A DNA stretch of 64,000 nucleotides, taken from assembly GCA_902500055.1 (NCBI GenBank), contig GCA_902500055.1_4131.1; one strand, given 5' to 3'. The position numbers and the translations under genes are program-made. The notes under the pieces were generated by a model. That model ran no database searches. It had not been told where the DNA came from and saw only the letters and a program-made list of their open reading frames with translations. The DNA comes from Escherichia coli (GTDB lineage: Bacteria; Pseudomonadota; Gammaproteobacteria; Enterobacterales; Enterobacteriaceae). This document shows, in pieces, positions 38,858 to 55,925 of the stretch (position 1 is its first letter; each line of letters begins with the position of its first letter).

Positions 38858-38861
38858 ATAC

Positions 38862-40441: not shown

Positions 40442-40494
40442 TTTGTTTCTCCCGTGTTGGTATGTGTACATAATACTAAAACAATTGAGTACTG

Positions 40495-40749: not shown

Positions 40750-40810
40750 TTTGTTTGTCCTATAAAAAAGGCGGGATCAGTTCCCGCCGTGTTGTTAGTA
40801 CTGCAAGTTA

Positions 40811-41206: not shown

Positions 41207-41301
41207 GGTATACATCCTATTAGTTGAGTTAGTACTACAAGTTAGAGTCTATTATAAAGTACTATCTGGGCAATGTCAAATAGTACTTTAAATGGATTCT
41301 A

Positions 41302-41625: not shown

Positions 41626-41712
41626 TTTTATTTCTCTCTCTTTGTTAGGAGGGGAACCATTTCCCCGCCTTGATGTAAACTATTATACAGTACTAAGATA
41701 CTTTGTCAATAC

Positions 41713-41988: not shown

Positions 41989-42008
41989 TTTAATGTTTCC
42001 TTATCAGT

Positions 42009-42150
42009 GGTTGATGTAAGTATTATACTCGTTTACTTTCTATTGTCAAACTATTTTATCAGGGGAGTTTTTCGTATGTCTTACTCCTGGACTACTTAAC
42101 GGGGTTACTTGTTTCGTTCCCCGTCCTGATGTAAAACATTATACTTGATT
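42009..42150 (-). repeat. duplicated ~140-bp leader cassette, copy 1
   Basis: Near-identical to 52141..52282; contains two tandem promoters and hairpins CGGGGAACG..CCCCG and GGAGTAAG..CTCC. Confidence 0.55.
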
Positions 42151-42221
42151 CTAAGTACAATGCAAGTACTTTTTAAAAATAGTTTTCAGTACTTGATAGT
42201 ACTAGCCACCAGCAAACAATA

Positions 42222-42301
42222 GATACATTTATGCACCCGGTGGGCTAATTTGTTTCTATGCGTATATAATAGCAAAGGGACTGACCGGAGTCAATCCCTT
42301 T
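42222..42301 (+). repeat. conserved intergenic unit, copy 3
   Basis: GATACATTTATGCACCCGGTGGGCTAA ... AAAGGGACTGACCGGAGTCAATCCCTTTTT. Confidence 0.6.
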
Positions 42302-42312
42302 TTCAATTATTT

Positions 42313-42462
42313 TTAAACTTCTTTCGGGTTGCGATAGGTGATAGCGTTCGGGTACATTTGTTTAATGTTATTCCATGCCTGGTTAACATTATAACCACTT
42401 GAGCGAATCAGTTGGTTACTACCGACACCTTGAAACACTACTTCAAATAAGAATTCTTTCAT
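42313..42462 (-). CDS. small hypothetical protein (49 aa)
   Basis: Hand-translated MKEFLFEVVFQGVGSNQ...; ATGA-coupled to upstream gene. Confidence 0.35.
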   Translation of the reverse strand: MKEFLFEVVFQGVGSNQLIRSSGYNVNQAWNNIKQMYPNAITYRNPKEV

Positions 42463-42632
42463 GCTTTCACCTCGCTATCTGCTTTGCCTTTACGCCAGGC
42501 CGTTGCTAATTGTTCGCGTTGCCATAAGTCGAGTGATACGTAAAGTTTTGCATTATCACCCTTCGGATATTCGCCAGTAGTACCAATCCGATAAAACAGA
42601 TCTTTCAGTACTGTTAATTCTACCTGGACCAT
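42459..42632 (-). CDS. small hypothetical protein
   Basis: Track ORF trimmed to Met35 (MVQVELTVLKDLF...) downstream of the leader hairpin. Confidence 0.45.
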   Translation of the reverse strand: MVQVELTVLKDLFYRIGTTGEYPKGDNAKLYVSLDLWQREQLATAWRKGKADSEVKA

Positions 42633-42718
42633 TATACTTTCCTCTTTGTTAGGAGGGGAACTATTCCCCTTCCGATATAAAACATTATACACTTTATTCA
42701 GTACAGTGCAAGTACTTT

Positions 42719-42931
42719 TTAATCTTTCAGCCAATGATCCTGAATGAATTTTTCACCGAAACCTTGCTGCATTGATTGTAACAGACGTTCGCGATGAGCG
42801 GCGGCGAATTGCTCAGTACTATGCGTTACACCTGGTTGATATCTGGATTCACCATTGGGGGCGATGTATTGTACATCCCACGGTTTTTCGTTAGTATCAG
42901 ACCATTTACGAACGATTAGTTGACCTTGCAT
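42719..42931 (-). CDS. hypothetical protein
   Basis: 70 aa. Confidence 0.5.
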   Translation of the reverse strand: MQGQLIVRKWSDTNEKPWDVQYIAPNGESRYQPGVTHSTEQFAAAHRERLLQSMQQGFGEKFIQDHWLKD

Positions 42932-43017
42932 TTTTCTTTCCTCTTAGTGGGGAGAATCATTTTCTCCCCTTCATGTAACTTATTATACAGTACTATAATC
43001 TATTGTCCAGTACTTTT

Positions 43018-43206
43018 TTACAGTTTATGAATTAATTCTTTATCTAAGCGATAGCGTACATTATTAATGGTAACAGCATTATTTTTAATGCTACGCTGTA
43101 CGGGTCCACCAGCAATAACAAACGTTGCTTTATTGCCCCGAACAATGATAGCACTTCCAGGATTACCGAAATCATCTTGTACTAAAATACTTGATAAGTT
43201 TTCCAT
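43018..43206 (-). CDS. hypothetical protein
   Basis: 62 aa. Confidence 0.5.
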   Translation of the reverse strand: MENLSSILVQDDFGNPGSAIIVRGNKATFVIAGGPVQRSIKNNAVTINNVRYRLDKELIHKL

Positions 43207-43284
43207 TTTTATTTCCTCTTAGTAGGGGAAGATGTTTCCCCTTGATGCAAGTACTATAACAGTACTGAAAACTAAATGCAAGTA

Positions 43285-43641
43285 CTATGATAAAATCATG
43301 ATAGGATATTCACTATCTATCAATACCTCGAATCCGAAACCTTCGTACCATTCTTTAAGATTAAAGGCGTTATCTTCTCCCGTATCGCATTCTAAGATGA
43401 TACAATCTGAATCATCGGCGGCATCGATAAAGGCATTCATTAATTCGTTACCTTCACCATTGCCCCGACTATCAGGATCAACATAAAGAGAATCAATAAA
43501 CGCTACACGGTCATAATCAAGATCCGGTGCAATGATTCCACGTTTAACAAACCAGTACTGCAATTGTGCTACTTTGCCCTGTACCTGATAACCAGTGATC
43601 TCTCCATTGTCAGTAGTACGCGTGATATGTTGTATTCCCAT
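43285..43641 (-). CDS. GNAT-family N-acetyltransferase-like protein
   Basis: 118 aa; acetyl-CoA motif-A-like IDSLYVDPDSRGNGEGNELMNAFIDAA. Confidence 0.5.
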   Translation of the reverse strand: MGIQHITRTTDNGEITGYQVQGKVAQLQYWFVKRGIIAPDLDYDRVAFIDSLYVDPDSRGNGEGNELMNAFIDAADDSDCIILECDTGEDNAFNLKEWYEGFGFEVLIDSEYPIMILS

Positions 43642-43705
43642 GATTACTATCCTCAGTTAAGATATAAAACATTATACACTATCTTTCAGTACTGTCAATT
43701 ACTTT

Positions 43706-43963
43706 TTATCTCATAGATCTATGCCAACAATTACGCGGTTGACGTTTAAAAATACTATCATGATCCTCCTGGCAAGTTATGCAGTACTTACACCCCTTAA
43801 CGACCTGGCGGCGATTCTCAGGGATTTTATCGCCGCAGTCGAGGCAATGTATCAGTGATTCTATTTGTGCGTTAATTTGCGTTCTAGCGTGGTTAACAGC
43901 AGCCTGAATCACTGCGTTAATCTCGTCTTGTTCGGCCCCATCTTTCGCGAATCCTACAGCCAT
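43706..43963 (-). CDS. TraR/DksA-type C4 zinc-finger protein
   Basis: 85 aa; CLDCGDKIPENRRQVVKGCKYCITC (CxxC...CxxC). Confidence 0.5.
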   Translation of the reverse strand: MAVGFAKDGAEQDEINAVIQAAVNHARTQINAQIESLIHCLDCGDKIPENRRQVVKGCKYCITCQEDHDSIFKRQPRNCWHRSMR

Positions 43964-44164
43964 TATTTTAACCTCATTATAAAAATACTATAGTACTGTA
44001 ATGCGACAATAATATTACTTGTTCTTACTTTTTCCAATCCACATGATACCACATATTCATTACCATATGTGCGGAACGATACACCATGAAAATTTTTATA
44101 CACTTGCACTACTAATCATAACCTTTCGTCTAACCAACTGCATAGAATTATACTACTTTACGCA

Positions 44165-44205
44165 AATTGATCAAGTATTGATCAGATCATTTTTGATCAA
44201 TATTA
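44165..44205 (-). promoter_or_regulatory. cluster of TTGATCA palindromes (4 GATC sites in ~40 bp) in a leader
   Basis: AAATTGATCAAGTATTGATCAGATCATTTTTGATCAATATT. Confidence 0.4.
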
Positions 44206-44293
44206 TACAGTTACATTTGTGCACCCTATGGGTTAGTGACGTTCTCGTCTTGATGTAAGTATTATGCCAGTACTGGATGATATTGTCAATAGA

Positions 44294-44491
44294 TTATTTT
44301 AATTTTTTTCTGTCATTGATTAATGCTTTCAGTACTATACTAATGATTTGCAATGATTCATCAATGACTATAAAATTATTTTCTTTCATTAGATGATAGT
44401 TACCATTGATTGTATATTCTAAGGAGTACTGTTTACGTTTAATTTTTGATAATGTTTCTATTTGTTTTTGTACTGATTTCATGCTAATCAT
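44294..44491 (-). CDS. hypothetical protein
   Basis: 65 aa. Confidence 0.45.
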   Translation of the reverse strand: MISMKSVQKQIETLSKIKRKQYSLEYTINGNYHLMKENNFIVIDESLQIISIVLKALINDRKKLK

Positions 44492-44596
44492 TGGTAAACG
44501 TCCTGTAACGCATTCTAACGAGATAAACGGTTGAGTACTGGCATTGTATAGGGTAATGAATTAAAGCCCACCAGCGTTAACCAGTGGGCTATAATC

Positions 44597-44740
44597 TTAC
44601 ATCTTGCGGATAATCTTAACAGTATCTTTCACCGATTTACCGTTTTGCTGACATTGCTCGATCATCGCGTATTGTTCTGCGGTCAGATCCTCGCCAGTTT
44701 TTGCCAGTACTGCGTCGATGAATGAATCCAGTGCGATCAT
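44597..44740 (-). CDS. small hypothetical protein (47 aa)
   Basis: Hand-translated MIALDSFIDAVLAKTGEDLTAEQ...; promoter and leader upstream. Confidence 0.35.
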   Translation of the reverse strand: MIALDSFIDAVLAKTGEDLTAEQYAMIEQCQQNGKSVKDTVKIIRKM

Positions 44741-44832
44741 TTTGTTTCTCTCTCTTAGGTTAAGTTAACTACTGTTTATAAAACTTATTATACAGTACTA
44801 TCAAACGTTGTCAATAGTACTGGTAATATATT

Positions 44833-45045
44833 TTAATTGATGATGGTTAATGTAAAGTTATAATCCCCTGCCTGGTATAGTACTTTATCGCCGAACGTGC
44901 CGACACGTTTCATATTGCAATAGATACCCATAACACTTTTTACATCTTTGATATTCCGAACGCCCGTAATATCCTTGTTTAAATGATCGTGATCAGAAAA
45001 TAAAACTTGTTTTGCATTTTTCAGTACAGTGCAGATATTAGCCAT
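44833..45045 (-). CDS. hypothetical protein
   Basis: 70 aa. Confidence 0.5.
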   Translation of the reverse strand: MANICTVLKNAKQVLFSDHDHLNKDITGVRNIKDVKSVMGIYCNMKRVGTFGDKVLYQAGDYNFTLTIIN

Positions 45046-45141
45046 TTTGTTTTCTCTCTCTGTTAGTGGGGAGAAGTTTTTCTCCCCTTGATGTAAACTA
45101 TTATACAGTACTATAATCTATTGTCAAACTATTTTTTTATA

Positions 45142-45483
45142 TTATTCGAAATCTTCTGGACCGGACTGATAATCATCTTCACCGTATGCACTTTCTAACT
45201 TCTCGCCAGTGTGATCATCAGTTAGTGAATCATCCTCATAATTCACGTCTACGCCTACAATGTAAAACTGGCTATCGTCTGGATCATTGAAATTAATTTT
45301 CTGAATGTTTACAATAACTGTATTGATGCCCAGGACACAGCCATCAGCCGTTACAAAGTACTGATATTTTTCACAACCGCCTGAATTGAAACCGTAATTA
45401 ATTTCGGCCCGACCATCATTTAAACGCAGTGCCTGGGCGATGATTTCATTTTCAAAGTTAGATTGAGCAATTGAGATAGTCAT
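45142..45483 (-). CDS. hypothetical protein with acidic C-terminus
   Basis: 113 aa; C-terminal ...ESAYGEDDYQSGPEDFE. Confidence 0.5.
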   Translation of the reverse strand: MTISIAQSNFENEIIAQALRLNDGRAEINYGFNSGGCEKYQYFVTADGCVLGINTVIVNIQKINFNDPDDSQFYIVGVDVNYEDDSLTDDHTGEKLESAYGEDDYQSGPEDFE

Positions 45484-45606
45484 GATTTGTTTCCTTATTA
45501 CCAGGGGAAACCGTTTCCCCTTTCGATGTAAAACATTATACGCTTATTGAGATAGTTTGCAAGTACTTTTTAAAAATAGTTTTCAGTACTCAATACTTAT
45601 ATAATA

Positions 45607-45692
45607 GATACACTTATGCACCCGGTGGGCTAGTGAGCTATCTCTCAATGAATATATAATAGCAAAATGGCTGACCGAAGTCAACCACTTTT
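45607..45692 (+). repeat. conserved intergenic unit, copy 4 (degenerate hairpin)
   Basis: GATACACTTATGCACCCGGTGGGCTAGTGAG ... AAAATGGCTGACCGAAGTCAACCACTTTTTT. Confidence 0.55.
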
Positions 45693-45697
45693 TTCAT

Positions 45698-45832
45698 TTA
45701 TTTTTTAGCTTTCAGTACTGCCGCCTTTCGCGTCATGCCTTGCTTAATGTACTCCTTTACTTTCGCTTTACGTGCTTTCGCTTTATCTGCTTTCGTTTTA
45801 GGAGTACTGTAAATTAAACCGTTAGGATTCAT
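45698..45832 (-). CDS. small basic protein (44 aa)
   Basis: Hand-translated MNPNGLIYSTPKTKADKAKARKAK...; TAAATG junction with upstream peptide. Confidence 0.35.
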   Translation of the reverse strand: MNPNGLIYSTPKTKADKAKARKAKVKEYIKQGMTRKAAVLKAKK

Positions 45833-45922
45833 TTAAATCACCATAAAGAATAGATAGGTTACTAACAATGCCGCGATCAATGCACCGATCACCGCTGAAC
45901 TGTAATAAGCTAATGATTTCAT
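45833..45922 (-). CDS. small hydrophobic peptide (29 aa), probable single TM helix
   Basis: Hand-translated MKSLAYYSSAVIGALIAALLVTYLFFMVI; ATGA-coupled to upstream gene. Confidence 0.35.
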   Translation of the reverse strand: MKSLAYYSSAVIGALIAALLVTYLFFMVI

Positions 45923-46071
45923 TTTTTAGCCTGAAAATAATGTTTAATTTGAGCGGCGGTCAGTGCACAATTACGCAGGAAGTTTTCTGTATAACTTTTG
46001 CGAGTACTGAAAGAGAATTGACCTTTGCCGTTACCGATAGTAACATCAAACCGAGCGTTGTATTGTTTCAT
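45919..46071 (-). CDS. small hypothetical protein (50 aa)
   Basis: Track ORF trimmed to Met11 (MKQYNARFDVTIGNGKGQ...). Confidence 0.4.
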   Translation of the reverse strand: MKQYNARFDVTIGNGKGQFSFSTRKSYTENFLRNCALTAAQIKHYFQAKK

Positions 46072-46152
46072 TTTGTTTCTCCTGTTATTGGGGAGAATCA
46101 TTTCTCCCCTTCATGTAAACTATTATACAGTACTAAAAACTAATTGCAAGTA

Positions 46153-46299
46153 CTATTTTTTAGATTTACGCAAACTTTCTACCATCTCAGGAGTAAGGCC
46201 CGGCGGGTAGGAAACTACTTCATCAACGAAACGTAAAGGGAATACCCCAGCGAAAGGTGAACGTGCTTTCTTAGTATTACTCTTTTTTGATGCTTTCAT
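46153..46299 (-). CDS. small basic protein (48 aa)
   Basis: Hand-translated MKASKKSNTKKARSPFAGVF...; leader hairpin GGGGAGAATCATTTCTCCCC upstream. Confidence 0.4.
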   Translation of the reverse strand: MKASKKSNTKKARSPFAGVFPLRFVDEVVSYPPGLTPEMVESLRKSKK

Positions 46300-46368
46300 T
46301 TCATATTCCTTAATTAGTGGGGAGAATCATTTCTCCCCTTCATGTAAAACATTATACGCGTTTAAAAA

Positions 46369-46578
46369 CTAATTGCAAGTACTATTTGAAAGTAAATGCT
46401 CATACGCTGCATTAACTACGTTTTCAATAACCGACTGTACAGAAAGATCCCCCACGTCCTGGCTATAGTAGAAATCGCTTACAGTGGTGTCATCGTATGC
46501 AAATACTTTACCAGGTACGGCATCAATCACATACATATTAACCTTTAAGATGTCGATCTTATCCTGTACAGTAAGCAT
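46369..46578 (-). CDS. hypothetical protein
   Basis: 69 aa. Confidence 0.5.
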   Translation of the reverse strand: MLTVQDKIDILKVNMYVIDAVPGKVFAYDDTTVSDFYYSQDVGDLSVQSVIENVVNAAYEHLLSNSTCN

Positions 46579-46583
46579 ATTAA

Positions 46584-46856
46584 TTAACCTTTTAAGTACT
46601 GGCTTAAGTAGTCTTGTTGATCTTCGGTGATTGCAGCCATCTTCCCTAGTACTGGATTGATGATATAATCCCCTGTAACGTCCTGTAACGCATTCTCAGG
46701 CGGTTTAACGGCTGGGGTAGCCATAGCCATTGCCTGGACTTGTTCGACGCTGTAACGCTCATATAGGCGGCATTCTTCCGGTGTTAACATAGCATCAGTA
46801 CGCTTCATCGGTTTAATGATGCTTTCGATCTCATTCAGTACTTGATTAACGTTCAT
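46584..46856 (-). CDS. hypothetical protein
   Basis: 90 aa. Confidence 0.5.
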   Translation of the reverse strand: MNVNQVLNEIESIIKPMKRTDAMLTPEECRLYERYSVEQVQAMAMATPAVKPPENALQDVTGDYIINPVLGKMAAITEDQQDYLSQYLKG

Positions 46857-46907
46857 GGTATAATCCCCAATATAAGCGGCCTGAATCGACCGCTAACGAT
46901 GTTTTGA

Positions 46908-47177
46908 TTAATAGGTGTATGGTTGACGCTCAAACAATGATTGCACGTTGTACGCCCCGCTTATGGGCTTCGCTGGTAAATCAATTTTATATTGTTCACG
47001 CTTAAAGATAATAAAACGGCAATTGTTTTTAACATCAAAATTGATTGAACGTTCCAGGAGTTTACCATCGTGCACAAATACAAGATAACCGCTTGGTACT
47101 TGTTTTGTAGTACTGGTTGCAACCATAGACCGCCGAACATGTGTACCTGCATCGATTAAAGTACTGATATTTTTCAT
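46908..47177 (-). CDS. hypothetical protein
   Basis: 89 aa. Confidence 0.5.
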   Translation of the reverse strand: MKNISTLIDAGTHVRRSMVATSTTKQVPSGYLVFVHDGKLLERSINFDVKNNCRFIIFKREQYKIDLPAKPISGAYNVQSLFERQPYTY

Positions 47178-47257
47178 TATACGATCCTCTTAAGTTAATT
47201 TAATTTCTTTCCCCTATGCAGACACTATATCAAAGTATCTGCATAAAGTAAAGCTAA

Positions 47258-47602
47258 TTAAAGATCTTTTTTGCGTTTAACATCAGTTACCGAACTGTAA
47301 ACAGTGATATTATTGTCACGGCAAAAACGGGAAAGATAAGAACCGCGTAAAAACTCTTTATCTTCCATATTAATAACCTTGCTAAATTCTTCCATTGCTA
47401 CAGTGTCAAAGTGATCCCCGTATCCATATTGGAACGGCACGTTTACTACTTCAATAAAATTACCATCAATTTCTACGTCTACACTTAAAGAGAAATAAGT
47501 GTTACCATATGAAGCCTGGAACCAACGCCGAGCGGCAATATGTACAACTTCAACAGAAGACAGGTTGATATTTTGTTTTGCGATAGTGTTGATATTAGCC
47601 AT
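47258..47602 (-). CDS. hypothetical protein, paralog of 41302..41625
   Basis: 114 aa; shared YGYG and VKRKKD tail. Confidence 0.55.
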   Translation of the reverse strand: MANINTIAKQNINLSSVEVVHIAARRWFQASYGNTYFSLSVDVEIDGNFIEVVNVPFQYGYGDHFDTVAMEEFSKVINMEDKEFLRGSYLSRFCRDNNITVYSSVTDVKRKKDL

Positions 47603-47683
47603 TTTAATTTCCTCTTAGTTGTCTTGATAAAATCTATTATGCCAGTACTATCAAACTATGTCAATAGTACTGTGATAATATTT

Positions 47684-47896
47684 TTACTTACTTTCTTTCG
47701 CTGCTTTGTGCGTTGCCACTGCCATAACCACATCAGCACGAACAAAGTTTTTTACCGTGTCAGTGTAGTAATTGATTGCATCGTCAACATCTGTAAAAAT
47801 CCGATACATGCCGCACCACGATACTTTATAACCTTCTTTCACTTCTTCCAGCTTAACCAGTGATTTGTTTACTTTGATTTTTGTGATGATAGCCAT
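47684..47896 (-). CDS. hypothetical protein
   Basis: 70 aa; promoter TTGACA-17-CATAAT upstream, duplicated at 47620 and 47920. Confidence 0.5.
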   Translation of the reverse strand: MAIITKIKVNKSLVKLEEVKEGYKVSWCGMYRIFTDVDDAINYYTDTVKNFVRADVVMAVATHKAAKESK

Positions 47897-47980
47897 TATT
47901 GTTTCCTCTTAGTTGTCTTGATAAAATCTATTATGCCAGTACTATCAAACTATGTCAATAGTACTGTGATAATATTTTTA

Positions 47981-48121
47981 CTTACTTTTTGCTTTCTTTG
48001 CTGCTTCCACCTGGTCGGCCCACTCTTTACCCCATACCTGAGCGTTATAGTGATACTGACAAAGAGCAACGCCCCGCTTTAAACCAGTAATAGATTTCTG
48101 ACCACATTGACAAGTTTTCAT
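47981..48121 (-). CDS. small Cys-containing protein (46 aa), possible zinc ribbon
   Basis: Hand-translated MKTCQCGQKSITGLKRGVALCQYHY...; leader hairpin upstream. Confidence 0.35.
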
Positions 48122-48207
48122 TTTAGTTTCCTTGTAGTGGGGAGAACCATTTTCTCCCCTTGATGTAATGTATTATACTTTATTCGATTTACTTTGCAAG
48201 TACTTTT

Positions 48208-48435
48208 TTAATTTAATTCATCAAGGCAAAGGATACGCTCAACGCCCAAATCAGTTAAACTAATCGACGGCACTTGATAGGTTTCAATGTATGCTACACT
48301 TGCCCACTGACCGAACTCATTAACGGCCCAGGTATTCATTGCATTTTGCAATTCCGCACCTTCCTTGTTGGTAATGACTGCAACTACTTGTTCGTTGCCA
48401 GTAGTACCAGATACGCGAGTAATGATAATAGCCAT
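48208..48435 (-). CDS. hypothetical protein
   Basis: Track ORF trimmed to Met20 (MAIIITRVSG...). Confidence 0.5.
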   Translation of the reverse strand: MAIIITRVSGTTGNEQVVAVITNKEGAELQNAMNTWAVNEFGQWASVAYIETYQVPSISLTDLGVERILCLDELN

Positions 48436-48549
48436 TGTTTTGATTCCTTTGATTTGGAAGGAGAACCGTTTCCCCCTCTCGATGTAAAACATTATACGCT
48501 AATCTCTTAATCGTGCAAGTACTTTTTATTACTTTTTGCAAAATACTTT

Positions 48550-48650
48550 AAACGCACTCAATCGCATTCTAACGACTTTAACGCCACCAGCTAGGGCAAT
48601 GCATCAGATAAACAGTTTAATACGTTAGAATCGTTTCTAGGCGGTGCTGG
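48550..48650 (-). other. interleaved inverted repeats (A-B-A'-B')
   Basis: CGCATTCTAACG ... GCCACCAGC ... CGTTAGAATCG ... GCTGGTGGC. Confidence 0.4.
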
Positions 48651-48672
48651 TGGCCTGGTAAACGATAAACAC

Positions 48673-48698
48673 AAAAAAGCCCACTGTATAAGTGGGCT
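48673..48698 (-). terminator. intrinsic terminator after 48720..49202
   Basis: Hairpin AGCCCACTTATACAGTGGGCT followed by T-run on minus sense. Confidence 0.55.
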
Positions 48699-48719
48699 AA
48701 TGATTCAGTACTTTAATTG

Positions 48720-49202
48720 TTATGCTTCAACTTTGCGATGAGCTTCGATCCATTCCTCGCGAGTCATACCACTGGAGTTAATCGCATCCAGTACTACCGC
48801 AATGCAGTTACCACGCACCGGAATCAGATATTCTTCCCCGTTATCAAGTACTACCGCTACACGTTCTTGAATCCATTTTTTAGCTTTTACTTCTGGCTTA
48901 TCTTCACCGTACTTTTTCGCCAGGGCTTTTTGTGCCATCTCTGTAACTACTTCCAGATCCAATCCAACTACTGCCGCCTGAATACTTTCAATTGTTGCTT
49001 GTAGTTCTGCTTCACGGGCCGCCTTTGCCGCTTCAATTTCTGCCGCTTTATTTGCTTGTAGTTCTTTCGCAGTACTGTAAGCGATGTTAAAATTATTGCG
49101 TACCGCTTTCATGGTATCGTTATCCAGTTCAGCCAGGATCTCAGCCGCGACGTTAGTTTCATTTGCTACCAGTGCTTTGATGAATGATTTTACATTAGCC
49201 AT
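48720..49202 (-). CDS. Ala/Glu-rich coiled-coil protein, hypothetical
   Basis: Trimmed to Met6 (MANVKSF...) after GAGGA; central KAAEIEAAKAAREAELQATIESIQAA. Confidence 0.5.
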   Translation of the reverse strand: MANVKSFIKALVANETNVAAEILAELDNDTMKAVRNNFNIAYSTAKELQANKAAEIEAAKAAREAELQATIESIQAAVVGLDLEVVTEMAQKALAKKYGEDKPEVKAKKWIQERVAVVLDNGEEYLIPVRGNCIAVVLDAINSSGMTREEWIEAHRKVEA

Positions 49203-49408
49203 TTTATAAATCCTCAATTAAAGTTTAGTTTACGTTTATTAGTGTATCAAAGTTTTCTCGACGTGTCCAGTTTTTCGTTCGACTTACTGGCGGTCTACTT
49301 AGTGCTCCCCGTCTTGATGTAATACATTCTACGCTTTTCTGCGGTAATGTCAACTACTTTCTTAAAACTATTTTCAAAGTATCTCAGTACTACGATACTA
49401 CAAAAACA

Positions 49409-49430
49409 AAAAAAGCCCACCAGGTGGGCT
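49409..49430 (-). terminator. intrinsic terminator after 49437..49667
   Basis: Hairpin AGCCCACCTGGTGGGCT followed by T-run on minus sense. Confidence 0.5.
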
Positions 49431-49436
49431 ATGTAC

Positions 49437-49667
49437 TTAATCAGTGAGTAAAATATTAAACACTTTACCATTTAACGTTATTGGTGCACTGCTACCAGGC
49501 TCAAGATCCGTTAATATACCTGCAATCGCTTTATCATTGGCGACCTTTCCAGTGTCCAACAGTACTACAGTACTGATAAGATTAACGCTCGTTTCAATAT
49601 CATAATGCACGGCGTTAAGTAGTTGTGTAGTACTGCTTTCGTTAAGTAAAACAATTCGCTTAGTCAT
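49437..49667 (-). CDS. hypothetical protein
   Basis: 76 aa. Confidence 0.5.
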   Translation of the reverse strand: MTKRIVLLNESSTTQLLNAVHYDIETSVNLISTVVLLDTGKVANDKAIAGILTDLEPGSSAPITLNGKVFNILLTD

Positions 49668-49688
49668 GATGTTACCCCGTAGTATCTA

Positions 49689-49988
49689 TCAACGGCAATT
49701 AATAACGCCGGTATGCGTTACTTTCTCAGTATCCATTACAGTGACCGAACCGCGTTTAGTACTGGCATCATAATAAATTGTCGTGCTACCGTTTTCGTCT
49801 TCTTCATGGAACGGGCCGTTTTTAAATGCTTCCGGCTGAATCTCCAGATCCTTTAATACAATCTCGCCAGTACTTTCATCGGTCATTGCAACAGTGCACT
49901 GAATGAATTTTTCACTACTTACATCTAATGACGCATTAACAGCGAAAGAGGAAACAGATAAAGCCAGGGCGATGATTGTAATTTTCAT
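49689..49988 (-). CDS. secreted or periplasmic small protein
   Basis: 99 aa; N-terminal signal peptide MKITIIALALSVSSFAVNA with AxA-type cleavage site. Confidence 0.5.
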   Translation of the reverse strand: MKITIIALALSVSSFAVNASLDVSSEKFIQCTVAMTDESTGEIVLKDLEIQPEAFKNGPFHEEDENGSTTIYYDASTKRGSVTVMDTEKVTHTGVINCR

Positions 49989-50072
49989 TTGATTATCCTT
50001 AGTTACCAGGGGGAACCGCTCCCCCTTGCGATGTAAAATATTATACAGTACTAAAAACTATTATCAAGTACT

Positions 50073-50309
50073 TTATGATTTTTTATAAAACATTTCAGCA
50101 GTGATATTTTTACCCGTTGGCTGTACTTTATCCAGAATTTTTTGATGCCCTGGTCGTCCAAAGGAATATGATCCGTAAACAGTAAACCAGTAGTTGCCAT
50201 CAGTGTTTACATGTACAGCACAATAGGGTACGCCCCGCGATTCATCACTAGTAAAGTGTGCTACCGTTCCCGTTACATTCGAAGTCGTTGATTTGATTTG
50301 TTCAAGCAT
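50073..50309 (-). CDS. hypothetical protein
   Basis: 78 aa. Confidence 0.5.
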   Translation of the reverse strand: MLEQIKSTTSNVTGTVAHFTSDESRGVPYCAVHVNTDGNYWFTVYGSYSFGRPGHQKILDKVQPTGKNITAEMFYKKS

Positions 50310-50418
50310 TTTATTATTCCTTAGTTACCAGGGGGAACCGCTCCCCCTATGCAAAACATTATACGCGTTTAAAAACTAATTGCAAGTATTTTAATAAAAA
50401 GTATTTGAAAAATAGTTG

Positions 50419-50447
50419 TTGACAAGTGCATCCAGTACTGGCATAAT
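50419..50447 (+). promoter_or_regulatory. plus-strand sigma70-like promoter, divergent from early genes
   Basis: TTGACA-17 nt (CCAGTACTG)-CATAAT on the plus strand. Confidence 0.45.
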
Positions 50448-50448
50448 T

Positions 50449-50562
50449 ACTACATCAAGACGAAACAGTCACTAACCCACCGGGTGCCGAGATCCGTCTA
50501 TTAAATGATTCAGTACTGAAAAAGTAACGGGGAGTTATTATCTCCCCGCGTTGTTATTTTGT
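50449..50562 (+). ncRNA. candidate short plus-strand transcript
   Basis: Runs from the promoter at 50419 to hairpin CGGGGAGTTATTATCTCCCCG plus T-rich tract; contains CCCACCGGGTGC box; no ORF. Confidence 0.25.
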
Positions 50563-50775
50563 AAGGTATAAACAGAAGTCGCCTTTATTTGCTACGCCGC
50601 CAGTGTAACGCGATGAATAGTTAGAAACGTCCTGGACTTCTGCTATTACCAGGGTATCATCATTCAATTCGTCGCAGAAGCAAACGGCTGGATCTTGTAC
50701 GCCGATTTTGTCGGCATGTTCCCGCATAGATTTCACCAGTGCTTCCAGTTGGGAAAGAGTAGTGATATTAGCCAT
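50554..50775 (-). CDS. hypothetical protein
   Basis: Track ORF trimmed to Met11 (MANITTLSQ...). Confidence 0.5.
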   Translation of the reverse strand: MANITTLSQLEALVKSMREHADKIGVQDPAVCFCDELNDDTLVIAEVQDVSNYSSRYTGGVANKGDFCLYLTK

Positions 50776-50863
50776 TTTATTTTCCTCATTACCAGGGAGA
50801 ACCATTTCTCCCTTTGATGTAAACCATTATACAGTACTGAAAACTAATTGCAAGTACTTTTTT

Positions 50864-51124
50864 TCAGTATTGTTTATCGTCGTCTTCCTCGATGAATTGA
50901 CCGACGAAATGATCTACTTTCGCTTTGAGGCTTTTATAATCTTCTTCTACTTCCGTTAAACGTTCCTGGTAGTATTCCAGTGCCTCAAGATACGCCGCCT
51001 CAGCAGTTTTTGCACGCATAGCTAAATTCATTCCACGCGTTTCATCATAAAGCCAATAACCATCGGTGCACTGGCTAATAGATAATGACTTGCTTAGTGC
51101 TGTATAGCTAATTACTTTACTCAT
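50864..51124 (-). CDS. hypothetical protein
   Basis: 86 aa. Confidence 0.5.
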   Translation of the reverse strand: MSKVISYTALSKSLSISQCTDGYWLYDETRGMNLAMRAKTAEAAYLEALEYYQERLTEVEEDYKSLKAKVDHFVGQFIEEDDDKQY

Positions 51125-51181
51125 TAGATAACCCTCAGTAAAGGCGGGAACTATTACCCGCCATTATCTCAGTACTGAATA

Positions 51182-51421
51182 TTACATTCCAACCATTGCA
51201 GCACGGATCGCCGTAGTGCTATACTTGAATCCGTCCGGCGTTGTAGTAGTACCGTTGGCTTTTAATCTGCGGTACATACATTCCGCAGCAATATCTTTCG
51301 TTTTACTTTGTGCGATGCAATTTTGAGCAATCCGGTATAATGATTCATCGTTATTGATCCAAAGGCTTACATTCCAATGAGTTTTGTTTTTGTGCCCGTT
51401 GTAAGTTTTAGTACTAGCCAT
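51182..51421 (-). CDS. hypothetical protein, paralog of 53221..53460
   Basis: Trimmed to Met11 (MASTKTYNGHKNKTHWNVSLWINNDE...); shared C-terminal PDGFKYSTTAIRAAMVGM. Confidence 0.55.
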   Translation of the reverse strand: MASTKTYNGHKNKTHWNVSLWINNDESLYRIAQNCIAQSKTKDIAAECMYRRLKANGTTTTPDGFKYSTTAIRAAMVGM

Positions 51422-51511
51422 TTTTAAATCCTCGTTTGAGCGGGGAACCACTCCCCGCCTTGATGTAAAGTATTATACGCTTTTAAACTTAGTTTACAAG
51501 TACTTTTTAAA

Positions 51512-52120
51512 TTAATATTCGATTGATTCCACTACGCCATCAATAACATTGAATTGATATTCGTTACCCTCAATCAGTGCAGTAATGTTTTCAGTAGTGA
51601 ATTGATCCTCATATGCATTCTCTAAATCACGGTACAACTTACGAGATAATTCACGGATCGCATCAGTCAGTAAGTTTTCCAGATCCTCAGCCAATGCCGC
51701 CTGTTTTACAGTTAAATCAGTGTAGCGAGTATCAACGCAACCGCCTACCGTGTTTTCGTGTGCGTAGCGTGATTGGAAACGTTCTACACTCATTTCTAAA
51801 TCATCCTCGTTCAACAGGTGACGGATTGAACGATATTTCGTTAACGCCTTAACCTTGCGTAAAAACTTCTCAGCGTCAACGTGGTTAGTACTGATTGATG
51901 CACCGTCACCTTGCGACCAAAAACCACTGTATTGCAATTCAGCTTCATCTATGCCGTATTCTGGTAGTACTGTTTCTTTATAGTACTCGATAACGCCCTC
52001 AGCAAAGAAATTATCCTCACATGAACGCTCACGATCCCGAACCAGTTCAATAGCCGCCGTTTTTTGTTCTGCGTTCAGTTCAGAAAAAGCCATAACAAAA
52101 GTAGTAGTGATAGTTTTCAT
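51512..52120 (-). CDS. hypothetical protein
   Basis: 202 aa; motif SGFWSQGDGAS; preceded by duplicated leader cassette. Confidence 0.55.
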   Translation of the reverse strand: MKTITTTFVMAFSELNAEQKTAAIELVRDRERSCEDNFFAEGVIEYYKETVLPEYGIDEAELQYSGFWSQGDGASISTNHVDAEKFLRKVKALTKYRSIRHLLNEDDLEMSVERFQSRYAHENTVGGCVDTRYTDLTVKQAALAEDLENLLTDAIRELSRKLYRDLENAYEDQFTTENITALIEGNEYQFNVIDGVVESIEY

Positions 52121-52140
52121 TTTGTAACCCTCATTCAGTA

Positions 52141-52282
52141 GTTGATGTAAGTATTATACGCTTTTACTTTCTATTGTCAAACTATTTTATCAGGGGAGTT
52201 TTTCGTGTGCCTTACTCCTGGGCTACTTAACGGGAAGTTACTTATTTCGTTCCCCGTCCTGATGTAAAACATTATACGCCTT
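52141..52282 (-). repeat. duplicated ~140-bp leader cassette, copy 2
   Basis: Near-identical to 42009..42150. Confidence 0.55.
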
Positions 52283-52344
52283 TAAACATAGTTTACAAGT
52301 ACTTTTTAAAAATAGTTTTCAGTACTGAATATTAAAAAAAAGTA

Positions 52345-52373
52345 TTGACAGCATTATCAAGTACTGGCATAAT
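52345..52373 (+). promoter_or_regulatory. plus-strand sigma70-like promoter
   Basis: TTGACA-17 nt-CATAAT, followed by CCCACCGGGTGC box. Confidence 0.4.
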
Positions 52374-52547
52374 ATACCCCATGACAACAGCTAACCCACC
52401 GGGTGCACAATTGTAACTATACTAAACTAATTTTTCTATAGATACACTCCCGCACCCTATGGGCTACGGCTTATCTGCCAATGAATACATTATGCCAGTA
52501 CTGACAAAATAAGTCAATACCGGCAATTGTAAAGATTTGTAAACTGC

Positions 52548-52784
52548 TTATACTGCAATCGCGTCCAGGCTGTAATAATAATAAGTGCCGTATTGGTGTA
52601 CTTTATTACCTTTTATTTCAGTACTGAATGAATCCGAACGGTTTGCATATGATGTTAATTTAAAGTACTTTGATTTGCTGATACGTTGCCATACACCACA
52701 GATCCGCTGTAAGTAAGTAGTTTTATTCGTGGTAGTATCTTTTACGGTTTTAACTTCAGTCATATACATATTAGTCATTTTCAT
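52548..52784 (-). CDS. hypothetical protein
   Basis: 78 aa. Confidence 0.45.
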   Translation of the reverse strand: MKMTNMYMTEVKTVKDTTTNKTTYLQRICGVWQRISKSKYFKLTSYANRSDSFSTEIKGNKVHQYGTYYYYSLDAIAV

Positions 52785-52865
52785 TACTCCAGGTTATAGG
52801 CGGGAAGAGTTCCCGCTCTCGATGTAAAACATTATACGCTTTTATCAGTACGGTGCAAGTACTTT

Positions 52866-53132
52866 TTATTCAAGTACTGCAATCTTTTTAGTACGGTACA
52901 CGGTCACGCGGTTGCCCTTTCGGTCGAGCTTTATTTCTACCACTCGACGCGATACACTATCGGGACTTTTTAAGGCCGCTAACCAGTACTGTAATGATCT
53001 GGCCGTACTACGCTTTACAATGGCCCAACGTTCACCACTTGCCGATCCCGCTCCCATATCTTTAAACGTTGCCCCGTCCTGGCGTGCGGCGATCCGAGCT
53101 TGTTCACGCGTCGCAAAATACTTAATATTCAT
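52866..53132 (-). CDS. hypothetical protein, paralog of 40811..41206
   Basis: Trimmed to MNIKYFATREQARIA... Confidence 0.55.
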   Translation of the reverse strand: MNIKYFATREQARIAARQDGATFKDMGAGSASGERWAIVKRSTARSLQYWLAALKSPDSVSRRVVEIKLDRKGNRVTVYRTKKIAVLE

Positions 53133-53220
53133 GTTGTTGCCCTTATCGTTGGTGTATGAATAAAACACTATTATAAAGTACTATCCCCGTGCAATAGTAC
53201 TTTAAATAAATTCTATTCTA

Positions 53221-53460
53221 TTACATTCCAACCATAGCCGCACGGATCGCAGTAGTGCTATATTTGAATCCGTCCGGTGTTTTATCTTGTCCAGTCTGTT
53301 CTAAAAATAACATCATATGACGGGCCGCATCATTGCGATTAGTATTGGCGGCAATAAAGTCCAGGGCCAACCGATACAATCCCTCATCGTTATTAATCCA
53401 CAGGCTTACATTCCAATGAGTTTTGTTTTTGTGACCTAAGAACATTTTTGATTTAGCCAT
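53221..53460 (-). CDS. hypothetical protein, paralog of 51182..51421
   Basis: Trimmed to Met14 (MAKSKMFLGHKNKTHWNVSLWINNDE...). Confidence 0.55.
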   Translation of the reverse strand: MAKSKMFLGHKNKTHWNVSLWINNDEGLYRLALDFIAANTNRNDAARHMMLFLEQTGQDKTPDGFKYSTTAIRAAMVGM

Positions 53461-53552
53461 TTTTTTAATCCTCTTATATAGTGGGGAACTATTCCCCACC
53501 TGATGTAAAACATTATACGCTTTTATTCAGTACTGTCAAACTAATTTTTAAC

Positions 53553-53915
53553 TTATTCGTAAATTTTGCCACTGTCAGCCCATACCAGGAAACGAGGCAT
53601 ATTATCCCATGCATCTTGTTTTAAATTTAAACCGTGTAATACTTCTGTACTTTCCATTCCTGGTACTGGTTTACTATACACCGCGAAATTTTCGCCCATA
53701 TACTGATAAACCATCGTCAAATCACTGGCGATCATCTTATGGATCATCGCATCAAGCATCACGGTGGCGGCGTATTGTTCACGCTTAAGCGGCAGCATTT
53801 TAATCAGTTCGCGGTATGCGTCAATGTGAGTTTTAACCGTTGCCGCCGGAAGATCTTTCATATCGTCGCGGAAGTTAACCAGGTTAGCAATGATTTTAGT
53901 GATTTGAGTCGCCAT
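53553..53915 (-). CDS. hypothetical protein
   Basis: 120 aa; first gene of the early-like cluster. Confidence 0.55.
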   Translation of the reverse strand: MATQITKIIANLVNFRDDMKDLPAATVKTHIDAYRELIKMLPLKREQYAATVMLDAMIHKMIASDLTMVYQYMGENFAVYSKPVPGMESTEVLHGLNLKQDAWDNMPRFLVWADSGKIYE

Positions 53916-54028
53916 CGTTTTAATCTCTTAAAAGTGAGTAGGGAAGTGTTCCCGCTCTCGATGTAAAACATTATACGCTTTTTTCAGTACTGTGCAAGTA
54001 CTTTCTACAAATACTTTTAAAATAGTTT

Positions 54029-54125
54029 TCTTTCTATATAGGGGAACTATTATTCAGTACTGAATCAATCCAGGGGAACTATCTTTCTATATAGGAGTAC
54101 TATTATTCAGTACTGAATCAATCCA
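54029..54125 (+). repeat. two ~43-bp direct repeats
   Basis: TCTTTCTATATAGGGGAACTATTATTCAGTACTGAATCAATCCA repeated with 2 mismatches. Confidence 0.6.
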
Positions 54126-54277
54126 CTAAATCATCCCTATACCCCGTAAAACGGCCTCAGACGCATTCTAACGCATTAATACACCTAAGCTATACATTTG
54201 CACCATTCTAATCATTCCAGGGCTTTACGGGCCGTTTAAACGCGTTAAATTATTTTCAATTATTTTGTTTTTAGGTA

Positions 54278-54305
54278 TTGACTTGATCCTGAAAAAGCGT
54301 ATAAT
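54278..54305 (+). promoter_or_regulatory. plus-strand sigma70-like promoter
   Basis: TTGACT-16 nt-TATAAT. Confidence 0.4.
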
Positions 54306-54493
54306 TACTACATAGACGCGAGAAAGCGGAAACCCCAGGGGGTGCGGAATTACGCCCAAAATTCAAGATATAAAAAAAGGATACACTCCCGCACCCTAGC
54401 AGGCAAACGCACTTTCTCAGTACTGAAATATAGTACCATAGTCCGGCCCAGGATAGCAAGCAAATTAATTAAAATTTTTTTGCTTCCAGGGTA

Positions 54494-54521
54494 TTGCTTT
54501 ATTTTTTCAGTACTGTATAAT
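54494..54521 (+). promoter_or_regulatory. plus-strand sigma70-like promoter
   Basis: TTGCTT-16 nt (CAGTACTG)-TATAAT; downstream sequence paralogous to that after 54305. Confidence 0.4.
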
Positions 54522-54743
54522 AGTTCCATCAAGTCGAGAAAGACTCAAGCCCACCGGGTGCATAGTTACGCCCAAAATTCAGTACTGAAAAAATTTTTAA
54601 AAATATCCGTCCAGGCCGTTGACATTGCCCCCAGTTTATAAGATAATGATTCCAGATTCAGAAAAATCTAACTCCAGATACTGCGGGGAAACTATCCCCA
54701 CGCGGTAGGGGAACTATTGGAAAAAACAAAATAAAATTTTGAT

Positions 54744-54870
54744 TTAGCCGTCTATACTTCCAGACGTGTAACCATCTAGCCGTTTAGCCGTCCAAACGTC
54801 TAGCCATCCAGCCATCCAGAAATCTAGCCGTTTAGCCGTCTAGATGGATAGCCATCTTTACTTCCAGACT
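54744..54870 (+). repeat. iteron-like short direct repeats
   Basis: At least 8 copies of TAGCC(G/A)T within ~110 bp, flanked by CTTCCAGAC x2. Confidence 0.5.
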
Positions 54871-55925
54871 TCTGGAGGGCTAGACATATCTACGTCCAAA
54901 ATCCACCCAGGGTAACTACACCCAAAATCCGTCAGTACTATACCATAGATCTATCTTTTGAAAGGGAGTATTCAGTACTGCCATCATAGCCCTCACTATG
55001 TTACCCTAGGAGGATGAAGACCATCATGTAGTACTGAATACTGTTAGAGGGAATCCACCAGCTTGTGCTGGTGGCATAATGCATTAAATTAAAATCAGTA
55101 CTGACACCATTCTGTTAATATCAGTACTGTTTATATTACGAAAAAAGAGGTTATAAAAAGATGTACCACCCATAGGAGGAACTATCCTTTCAGTACTGTC
55201 TCACGACAGGAGGTAGAGTGAATGAATTGTTTGCGGCAACTCATCTCTCTATGTAGAACATTATACAGTACTGAATCATAATGTCAATAGCTTTCTTTCA
55301 TTATTCAGTACTGATATTCTTGAGAACTACCCGACTACAAACATCATTATATCCCACAAATCATAAACGTCCCAACGTAAATTTCAACTTTCGAAGATCC
55401 AACTTTTATTTCATAGGTACTCCAAAATTTTTAGGATCGAGATTTAGGATGGAGTACTAACCAACTTTTTGCTGGAGCCTCAAGGGGTAATGGAATTTTA
55501 CCCCGAAGGGTAAAAGGGTAATTGTAATTAAGGTGAAAGTAATAATTCAGTACTAATCATTGTGTGATTACTTTTGATTACATTTGATGTAATTTGCAAA
55601 ATGGAAAAGGAGCTTGGAAACTACAAAGTACGGCAGACTTCCTCTGCCTACTTAGTGGGATATCAGTACTGAATCATTCACACACATTTCCGTGCATTCT
55701 TGAGCAATCTTGTCTATACTAATCAGTACTGAATCATATATAATCATTCTGTGATTCTACGGTGCTCATATAAATGTTTATATATGATTACTTATGACTA
55801 CCTATGATTACGGGGTTTAGCCTGGGGAGAATCCTAGTGATCGCATTTGTCCAGGCTGAATTTTAACAATTCGCCTGTACATAAAGGTTGTTCACTAGGA
55901 GCTTCCCCTGTCTCTATGTGTTTAA

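Follow-up and report, generated by a model that had tools for sequence, protein, structure and literature searches.

The window, that is, the whole stretch of 64,000 nucleotides that was analysed, is DNA of an Asteriusvirus, a jumbo coliphage of the 121Q/PBECO4-like type. By megablast, positions 50300-52600 match 177 phage records, the best of which are Asteriusvirus jumbo coliphages of 350-385 kb, led by UE-S1 (95.6%) and followed by PBECO4, G17, and others. Between about 30 kb and about 60.3 kb, the long open reading frames are almost all small and lie on the minus strand, and from about 35.5 kb upward the gaps between genes carry promoters and terminators. Position 1 of phage vB_Ec-M-J aligns with position 55652 of the window, and the end of its annotated direct terminal repeat of 21,525 bp aligns with about 35057, so that 35057..55652 is the equivalent of this repeat and the physical left end lies at about 55652. 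The neighbouring proteins gave no functional clue, all belonging to PHROGs without assigned function and two containing DUF7249, and ARAGORN found no tRNA or tmRNA gene in the window.

One of the gaps holds a plus-strand promoter at 50419..50447, composed of the -35 hexamer TTGACA (50419-50424), a 17-nt spacer with CAGTACTG at 50433-50440, in which an extended -10 TG occupies 50439-50440, and the -10 hexamer CATAAT (50442-50447). The initial annotation had described this promoter together with a second of the form TTGACA-17-CATAAT, located on the plus strand at 52345..52373. Both are present and above chance, with 11 of 12 hexamer matches and a TG extended -10 each, and both are indeed divergent from minus-strand early promoters, which adjoin them at 50385..50358 and 52298..52271.

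Downstream of the first promoter, the putative start site is A50454, the A of a CAT, with which a conserved 5' RNA domain begins (50454..50499, plus strand); the covariance model described below matches 50454-50505 with 47.7 bits (E 3e-13). Judged by pair counts and the orthologue alignment, the domain opens with a hairpin, HP1, formed by GAC (50459-50461) and GUC (50468-50470) around a loop at 50462-50467. A family box follows at 50476-50487, reading CCCACCGGGTGC as DNA and CCCACCGGGUGC as RNA, over which the mini-hairpin ACCC-ACC-GGGU can be drawn at 50475-50485; alternatively, GGGUG at 50482-50486 pairs with CGUCU at 50495-50499. An A/U-rich spacer of 28 nt between core and terminator (50500..50527) contains UUCAGUACUGAA, also given as CAGUACUG, and carries CAGTACTG at 50511-50518. 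It leads to the terminator at 50528..50562, CGGGGAG-UUAUUAU-CUCCCCG, whose hairpin spans 50528-50548 and whose U-rich tail reaches to about 50562. This hairpin with its T-rich tract, already recognised in the initial annotation, scores as terminator-like on both strands, ending the small RNA on the plus strand and gene 50554..50805 on the minus strand. The absence of an open reading frame was also borne out, no plus-strand frame of at least 30 amino acids lying between promoter and hairpin. The length of about 115 nt first given for the RNA had to be shortened to about 103-109 nt, counted from A50454 with consensus-based ends. Its overlap with an opposite transcript is confined to the shared terminator of the convergent gene.

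The 50.4 kb promoter is conserved in G17, UB, phAPEC6, EJP2, 121Q, and the Klebsiella phage RaK2, in all of which hexamers, box, and spacer are kept and the unit is flanked by two opposite-strand genes, its orientation being maintained; in 121Q and EJP2 the left-hand gene has been replaced and the unit persists. Compared with RaK2, the core is 70% identical, against 22-42% for the flanking coding DNA, while among close relatives the unit is about as conserved as its flanks and not more. The spacer at 50500..50527 shows 89-100% identity across Asteriusvirus and 67% to RaK2, and stand-alone units of other genera have a counterpart spacer, mostly with AGUACUG. Within the domain, the HP1 loop varies among orthologues (GAAACA, GAUACA, GAGAAA, GAGAUA), both HP1 stem strands are changed in RaK2 (GAC/GUC to AGC/GCU), and the pentamer changes from CGUCU to UAUCU. 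Terminator stems covary as well, occurring as GGGGAG/CUCCCC, GGGGAU/AUCCCC, and GGGAGAC/GUCUCCC. On these sequence comparisons, the suggestion that this locus yields a small RNA, one half of what had been proposed, is strongly supported: the 50.4 kb unit, kept as far as RaK2 with compensatory changes, is a small-RNA candidate and would be a clean gene of about 105 nt, standing alone.

The 52.3 kb unit is built differently. Its 5' RNA domain on the plus strand (52381..52424) is of a short-leader type with no clear HP1, the covariance model matching 52373-52424 with 42.5 bits. The box that both sites had been said to share is found here as CCCACCGGGTGC at 52395-52406, and GGGUG (52401-52405) stands opposite UAACU (52414-52418) with one G·A mismatch. 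The initial annotation had this unit reading antisense into the leader of gene 51512..52120; the unit is in fact directed away from that gene and its proximal promoters, and is antisense only to a convergent sister unit on the minus strand (52434..52517). The sister unit comprises a promoter TTGACT-17-CATAAT at 52517..52489, which is also the distal upstream promoter of gene 51512..52120, and an RNA domain at 52485..52434 with HP1 UGGC-AGAUAA-GCCG and the box CCCAUAGGGUGC at 52463..52452, 57 nt from box to box. The 52.3 kb RNA is fully complementary to the transcript of this 52517 unit, and read-through of the two arms gives a long hairpin with predicted folding energies of -28.8 kcal/mol on the plus strand and -42.7 kcal/mol on the minus strand.

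The two sites turned out to be not a special pair but two of ten units of a larger terminal-repeat family with the same box, promoter type, and layout. A covariance model derived from 54 copies and run with filters off finds exactly 10 full units and 1 relic in the 64 kb window, ranging from 36.4 to 54.6 kb, and no further units elsewhere in it. Those on the minus strand begin at 36454, 39204, 42215, 44203, 45600, and 52434, those on the plus strand at 50454, 52373, 54312, and 54528, and the relic is a decayed half-copy at 54373-54398 (minus strand). Five minus-strand units are co-oriented with the genes. The unit at 45600..45651 has its promoter -35 within a terminator-like hairpin and is followed by the next early promoter; that at 44203..44254 is served by a promoter at 44289..44261 of the same type as in the 50.4 and 52.3 kb units; a Chi sequence lies just downstream of that at 42215..42266; and 39204..39255 and the innermost copy, 36454..36505, were found by the covariance model. 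The remaining two plus-strand units are aimed at the genome end: 54312..54363, with the promoter TTGACT-16-TATAAT at 54278-54305 and the relic as its decayed convergent partner, and 54528..54579, with the pairing GGGUG/CGCCC. Further on, three tandem plus-strand promoters read into an array of repeats with an 8-bp period at 54749-54860.

Chance does not account for this repetition. The promoter pattern with the AGTACTGG spacer has 8 matches in the window, where 0.01 are expected by chance, and the box with up to 2 mismatches has 13, where 0.38 are expected. Around the box matches lies a shared module, in which a strong promoter and a CAT start are followed, usually after a small hairpin, by CCCAnnGGGTGC, 8 nt, and a pyrimidine-rich pentamer. 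All 10 units fall inside the terminal-repeat equivalent, and the four on the plus strand, including those at 50.4 and 52.3 kb, aim at the physical left end from 1.1-5.6 kb away. In vB_Ec-M-J, likewise, all of its own ten units lie within the annotated terminal repeat and none in the next 8.5 kb. Because the family is confined to the terminal repeat, with ten copies in each, a packaged genome holds about twenty.

Beyond this phage, 65-76 distinct units were collected from contigs sized as RaK2, GAP32, and CBB and from other contigs of 350-380 kb. In exact-pattern scans of IMG/VR, true units, with promoter and full architecture, occur only in contigs of 345-378 kb, the sizes of RaK2, GAP32, CBB, 121Q, and related phages, and these contigs contain several copies each; the other matches are chance occurrences in unrelated small contigs, which also make up most of what the looser collection pattern returned. 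The invariance of CCCA and GGGTG is partly due to the way the copies were collected, although searches with the model brought up no more than mild variants. A blastn search with the 161-nt 50.4 kb unit matched 52 phage records, of Escherichia (33), Klebsiella (10), Salmonella (8), and Erwinia (1) phages, in which hypothetical proteins or nothing at all are listed under the matches, and RNA annotation at these loci is absent from all records inspected. A host origin or host mimicry was rejected, since a blastn search of 5,426 complete E. coli genomes with the whole unit returned no match. Rfam (release 15) at gathering thresholds has no match in the whole window, and an E-value scan of 50380-50600 yielded only weak matches far below threshold, the best being sroE over the terminator (22.3 bits against a threshold of 51). 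In the literature searched on Asteriusvirus, 121Q, PBECO4, RaK2, GAP32, CBB, jumbo-phage small RNAs, and terminal repeats, RpoD-like promoters are reported and the motif is not described. The units apparently constitute a so far undescribed, structured, multi-copy RNA family of RaK2-like jumbo phages of enterobacteria, kept across their genera.

The transcribed strand of each unit opens with a conserved domain of about 46-52 nt behind a near-consensus host sigma-70 promoter. Its order is the 5'-terminal hairpin HP1, YUAR as a short linker, and R-CCC-ANN(N)-GGG-U-GC, which is near-invariant. HP1 begins 2-5 nt past the inferred start site and closes purine- or A-rich loops of 4-8 nt, such as GAGAAA, AGAUAA, and AGAACAA. 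Its stem occurs in 27 distinct sequences, all complementary, including GAC/GUC, UGAG/CUCA, UGGC/GCCG, CGC/GCG, AGCA/UGCU, AGACA/UGUCU, GGAG/CUCC, ACCAC/GUGGU, and GCCA/UGGC. The hairpin score is 4.43, compared with 3.11 +/- 0.12 after shuffling, and none of 1000 shuffles reaches it; in a subset of units HP1 is only a 3-bp UAG/CUA or is absent. The mini-hairpin of 4 bp, R-CCC/ANN/GGG-U, is paired in 98.6% of cells over 72 distinct sequences, around a loop of 3 or 4 nt (ACA, AUA, UAGA, UCAA, and others). Its inner G is changed to A in only two copies (L030 7800 and L010 4521), and both have the C opposite changed to U, giving CCU...AGG.

A second pairing joins GGGUG to a YRYYY pentamer at a fixed distance of 8 nt, the five positions being paired in 92-100% of sequences, compared with 33-66% in slid controls. 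Variation in YRYYY consists exclusively of wobble-compatible transitions, from G·U to G-C or from U-A to U·G; with the GGGUG strand invariant, the support for this pairing comes from one-sided changes in YRYYY only. On the opposite strand each G·U pair would be A·C, which ties the fold to the strand that is transcribed. The mini-hairpin and the GGGUG/YRYYY pairing use the same GGG and are mutually exclusive, and a conformational switch between the two is possible.

Such a pattern bears on the proposal that the units act as DNA, either as a protein-binding palindrome of the CCC-N3-GGG kind or as transcription-primed replication origins or R-loop sites near the genome end. In favour of this, the box has the form of an interrupted palindrome, no units occur outside the terminal repeat, four units are aimed at the physical end, and the three tandem plus-strand promoters run into the array with the 8-bp period; origins of the T4 type, moreover, consist of a promoter plus a downstream element. 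Against this, a box spacer of 3 or 4 nt and arms that change together (CCU/AGG) fit a hairpin and fit a dimeric DNA site poorly, the YRYYY changes preserve G·U or G-C pairing, which is meaningless in duplex DNA or on the other strand, HP1 covaries, and the distance to the promoter is not fixed, making a DNA-level element improbable. The distance of the box from the inferred start site varies from +16 to +24 with the fold kept, which argues against a fixed DNA site that loads a factor onto the polymerase. A loading site of the Q or ops type was rejected on the same ground, the evidence favouring RNA pairing.

Several other readings of the core were also tried and discarded. A helix between the 5' leader (AGAUA, AUAGA, AGACG) and a 3' UAUCU or CGUCU, predicted by RNAalifold in Asteriusvirus orthologues, is broken in RaK2, and complementarity to a unit's own leader (4.23) exceeds that to other leaders (4.14) by no more than chance would give (p = 0.22). 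A mini-ORF, in which an SD-like GGGUG would precede AUG/GUG/UUG, UAU, CUA, and a stop, has its start codon in only about 55% of units, and the frames are not conserved. No unit has a boxA-like sequence (resembling CGCUCUUUA), the HP1 loops are not the fixed, GNRA-like pentaloop of a boxB hairpin, and HP1 is missing in some units, which speaks against a lambda-type nut site. A CsrB-like sponge for CsrA was dismissed as well, GGA being present in only a subset of the 8-nt loops and the invariant motif being GGGUG.

Orientation divides the family into nearly equal parts. Among the 51 units with enough flanking sequence, 26 run with the neighbouring genes, 22 run against them, and 3 are unclear. 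The opposed stand-alone units number 15, and 8 of them pass a strict terminator rule of GC pairs plus a T-rich tail, with the hairpin starting 9-27 nt past the core in these eight and 23-27 nt past it in seven; inspection across genera, including the window and RaK2, shows a similarly placed hairpin in at least 13 of the 15. Usually AGUACUG and an A-rich run form the spacer before it, and in some clades the hairpin consists of two AGUACUGG motifs without a clear U tail. The predicted RNA of these units is about 100 nt long.

The co-oriented units lie behind the terminator of the upstream gene, with the -35 TTGAC inside that hairpin in several cases. The next promoter, where detected, is located 24-75 nt downstream and belongs to the next gene. 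These units have no GC-rich terminator and no conserved 3' end, showing at best an AU hairpin with a U run, and what they produce may be no more than a long leader of the following gene. Read most simply, the 5' RNA domain would be the product that matters, with a strong stop present where read-through would produce antisense RNA and dispensable where read-through enters the next gene in the sense direction. Additionally, fourteen units are involved in convergent face-to-face pairs; in five lineages the two boxes are exactly 57 nt apart, and in another clade 68-75 nt. Read-through of the window's convergent pair would let each RNA form one long hairpin with its partner's complement (the energies, -28.8 or -42.7 kcal/mol, being those given above).

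These counts weigh on the other half of the original proposal, namely that the RNAs are cis-antisense regulators which pair or interfere with the minus-strand early genes and their leaders. The four plus-strand units of the window do run counter to the gene row, the complementarity of the 52.3 kb RNA to the 52517 transcript lies upstream of 51512..52120, and strong promoters placed back to back and face to face can interfere with each other. Half of the family, however, is sense-oriented (26/51), so that overlap is not a family property and antisense orientation is not supported as a defining one. The opposed stand-alone members are terminated before coding sequence, contrary to what an antisense regulator would require, as the 50.4 kb RNA, which overlaps the shared terminator only, illustrates, and what is conserved is a G·U-rich intramolecular fold rather than complementarity to a target. 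Apart from the units themselves, the window contains no complement of the box. Taken together, a cis-antisense role is very unlikely; independent small RNAs are favoured over it because at least 13 of the 15 opposed stand-alone units have a hairpin at a fixed distance and the co-oriented units have none.

The promoters themselves raise the question of whether the RNA has any dedicated function, given that the units could be duplicated promoter-terminator cassettes whose initial transcribed region is retained because it aids promoter escape or lets repeats recombine. In several units the -35 lies within a terminator-like stem-loop, promoters of the same type at 47664 and 47958 (minus strand) drive ordinary mRNAs, and strong phage promoters typically have purine-rich initial transcribed regions. 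Such cassettes resemble the PeSL elements of T4-type phages, in which an intergenic terminator-like stem-loop and a sigma-70 early promoter are repeated among small early genes, and in four units of the present family a stem-loop of this kind encloses the -35. PeSL cassettes are not known to have a conserved structured domain transcribed downstream of the promoter, whereas in the present family the transcribed domain is the most conserved part. Conservation reaches +45 or +50, well past the initial transcribed region, the changes are compensatory and preserve wobble pairs instead of reflecting plain sequence identity, and stand-alone copies across genera have their own hairpin at a fixed distance, leaving little room for mere cassettes.

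Short non-coding transcripts are familiar from other phages. Lambda oop, the 6S RNA derived from PR', and the P4 CI RNA are single-copy transcripts with a strong constitutive promoter and a nearby terminator, or are processed from a leader, and they act by antisense pairing or arise as by-products of Q or immunity control. They resemble the 50.4 kb unit as short promoter-to-terminator transcripts and differ from the family in that the latter is multi-copy and paralogous, with a common structured core. The stand-alone copies, including 50419-50562, also resemble Hfq-type small RNAs: each has a dedicated promoter and a structured 5' part, a stretch rich in A and U leads to a Rho-independent terminator, and the RNA measures about 100 nt. 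Unlike those RNAs, the family has no conserved single-stranded seed or target complementarity that could be found, its invariant nucleotides are located in a hairpin, and its copy number far exceeds that of any bacterial small RNA. A promoter and a Rho-independent terminator delimiting an RNA of 50-300 nt are seen in the stand-alone opposed units, some of whose hairpins are without a clear U tail, and not in the co-oriented ones. The family falls among phage non-coding RNAs and promoter-proximal RNA elements. In the distantly related Pseudomonas jumbo phage PA5oct, RNA-seq has defined ncRNA001 and ncRNA002, of 236 and 451 nt, as ORF-free RNAs of the long terminal repeat that are highly transcribed throughout infection (PMC7318152). 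The likeness lies in ORF-free regions of a terminal repeat; homology was rejected, the model finding 0 matches in the 17-kb stretch of repeat that contains both.

The main rival to a small RNA acting in trans is a cis-acting antiterminator similar to the put sites of phage HK022, in which the 5' domain, while still nascent, would attach to the transcribing host RNA polymerase and protect it against pausing and termination, so that transcription could cross the many terminators between the small early genes of the repeat. The putL element starts at +3 of a transcript made from an early phage promoter by host RNA polymerase (PMC9378689), and the family domain similarly starts at +2/+3 of a strong early promoter. 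As in putL and putR, a structured RNA occupies the 5' end of a strong early-promoter transcript and needs no open reading frame. The variation of the start distance from +16 to +24 with the fold kept implies action as RNA, co-oriented copies recur at intervals of 1.4-7 kb in a gene row interrupted by terminators and have no conserved 3' end, and a partner found throughout the enterobacteria, such as the polymerase, would explain the invariant nucleotides. Put RNA is about 73 nt long, with two long stems and a triple helix, is present in one or two copies, and always lies upstream of the genes served; the family domain has about 46-52 nt with a hairpin of 3-5 bp and a 4-bp mini-hairpin and/or a 5-bp G·U-rich helix, and occurs in ten copies per repeat, half of which oppose genes and some of which have their own hairpin. 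Similarity in sequence to put is not established. For the 22 of 51 copies that oppose genes, reading through hairpins at a fixed distance would make only antisense RNA, and most downstream genes have a strong promoter of their own, so antitermination is not obviously needed. A put-like element would cover the co-oriented half only, and as an account of the family it appears doubtful.

The reading preferred here, to which a probability of roughly 0.45 is assigned, is that the units are independent immediate-early small-RNA genes acting in trans through binding of a factor. Host polymerase would transcribe them as soon as the terminal repeat enters the cell, which would probably place the family RNA among the first products of the phage. 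Function would reside in the 5' RNA domain itself, within an RNA of about 75-105 nt, and the remaining architecture of the unit would merely insulate that RNA. In trans, the RNA may bind, titrate, or recruit a factor conserved among enterobacterial hosts or among these phages, the contact being made through the invariant hairpin nucleotides and not by antisense pairing. Small-RNA genes of this kind would account for both orientations, the hairpins of the stand-alone units, the insulation of the co-oriented ones, the high copy number, and the strong promoters. The convergent pairs at exactly 57 nt are awkward for a simple trans-acting small RNA, as they would give fully complementary RNAs.

A bolder extension of the small-RNA reading, which the sequence patterns render conceivable and which is offered tentatively, is an infection programme that begins with RNA, in which some 20 strong host-type promoters in the repeats would fill the cell with small RNAs of a single family, all sharing one scaffold. 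Acting ahead of the first phage protein, they would shut down or redirect some conserved machine of the host, which might be RNA polymerase or the machinery of termination, a chaperone or nuclease of RNA, or a defence that senses RNA, with the mutually exclusive pairings of the GGG acting as a conformational switch. If this proved true, phage effector RNAs would gain a new class.

The RaK2/121Q group of jumbo phages is under development for therapy, yet some 80% of the genes and the whole of the regulatory RNA in these phages are uncharted. The invariant 12-nt box and the strong promoters make the units easy to mutate, to tag, and to use as probes, and for annotation the empty gaps of 150-250 bp in these repeats are, in our view, genes. 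If RNA polymerase proved to be its target, the RNA would join the one other type of protein-independent antiterminator RNA known to us; should it serve as a decoy, it would be one of very few RNA-based counter-measures of phages. Host takeover would gain a new player in a structured RNA that is conserved, multi-copy, and promoter-driven, and whose DNA is probably the first to enter the cell.

The palindrome CAGTACTG occurs 65 times in the window against 0.75 copies expected, with dense stretches at 13-20 kb and 35-60 kb, and is probably the site of a regulator. Example copies lie at 50433-50440, 50511-50518, and 52320-52327, and the spacer of the TTGACA-N8-CAGTACTGG-CATAAT promoters contains the palindrome. 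It is also found about 40-60 bp upstream of the early promoters, the minus-strand promoters of small early genes, while its AGTACT form immediately adjoins their -35 element, giving AAAAAGTACTTGCA. At 50419, the small-RNA promoter includes a copy that also lies upstream of the early promoter diverging from it. In other genera, two copies build the stems of hairpins with the arrangement CAGUACUGG-N8-CCAGUACU.

Sixteen minus-strand early promoters between 35974 and 54002, including those at 50858, 51504, and 52303, share the pattern AAAAAGTACTTGCA-N16/17-TATAAT. Most of their mRNAs carry a second conserved element at the 5' start, ahead of the Shine-Dalgarno sequence, consisting of CAU, a few nucleotides, and a hairpin that pairs a G-rich with a C-rich strand and has GGUU in its loop, as exemplified by GGGGGAAAUGGUUCUCCC. 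Two identical copies of a TTGACA-N8-TAGTACTGG-CATAAT promoter, at 47636-47664 and 47930-47958 on the minus strand, lack the 12-nt box of the RNA units (promoters followed by a conserved folded 5' RNA domain) and drive ordinary mRNAs that start with ATCAAGAC, followed by a Shine-Dalgarno sequence and ATG, so promoters of this class are not restricted to the RNA units.

Two paralogous early proteins, encoded at 51182..51451 and 53221..53499 on the minus strand, contain DUF7249 and belong to phrog_871. All neighbouring proteins (10/10) fall into PHROGs of unknown function. Directly beyond the inferred boundary of the terminal repeat, at about 55900-57330 on the minus strand, lies a run of small paralogous ORFs of fewer than 70 amino acids with the common start ATGAATAAAGAACATAAAGAATTC (MNKEHKEF).

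Four unit promoters, at 36540-36500, 39290-39255, 42300-42266, and 45685-45651 on the minus strand, have their -35 element TTGACT within a terminator-like hairpin, GGGATTGAC-TCCG-GTCAGTCCC, followed by TTTGCTATTATAT. A single sequence would therefore stop one transcript and begin the following one, and this layout is conserved in RaK2, GAP32, CBB, and others. In one clade of related phages, AATGATAATCATT is present in the spacer between convergent units, which face each other, at about 2830 and 8090 of contig L002, about 6095 of L033, and about 1085 of L053; it resembles the core of the Fur-box consensus.

Near the left end of the genome, inferred at about 55652, an array of about nine repeats with an 8-bp period, TAGCCGTY / CAGCCATC, occupies 54749-54860, about 0.8 kb from that end. 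Three tandem plus-strand promoters (54278, ~54495, and 54619) transcribe into the array, which may serve as an origin or as a signal for packaging or for the terminus. Of the E. coli Chi sequence GCTGGTGG the window has 11 copies, where 0.41 would be expected; they lie on the minus strand at 36418, 38220, 40120, 42206, 43106, 44568, 48584, and 55055, and on the plus strand at 48646, 55067, and 62751. Seven minus-strand copies lie inside the terminal repeat, and a palindromic Chi pair, CCACCAGC-TTGT-GCTGGTGG, is situated within about 0.6 kb of the genome's inferred left end. Unit promoters of other RaK2-like phages hold Chi or its complement in their spacer. The Chi copies suggest that the genome ends are protected against RecBCD.
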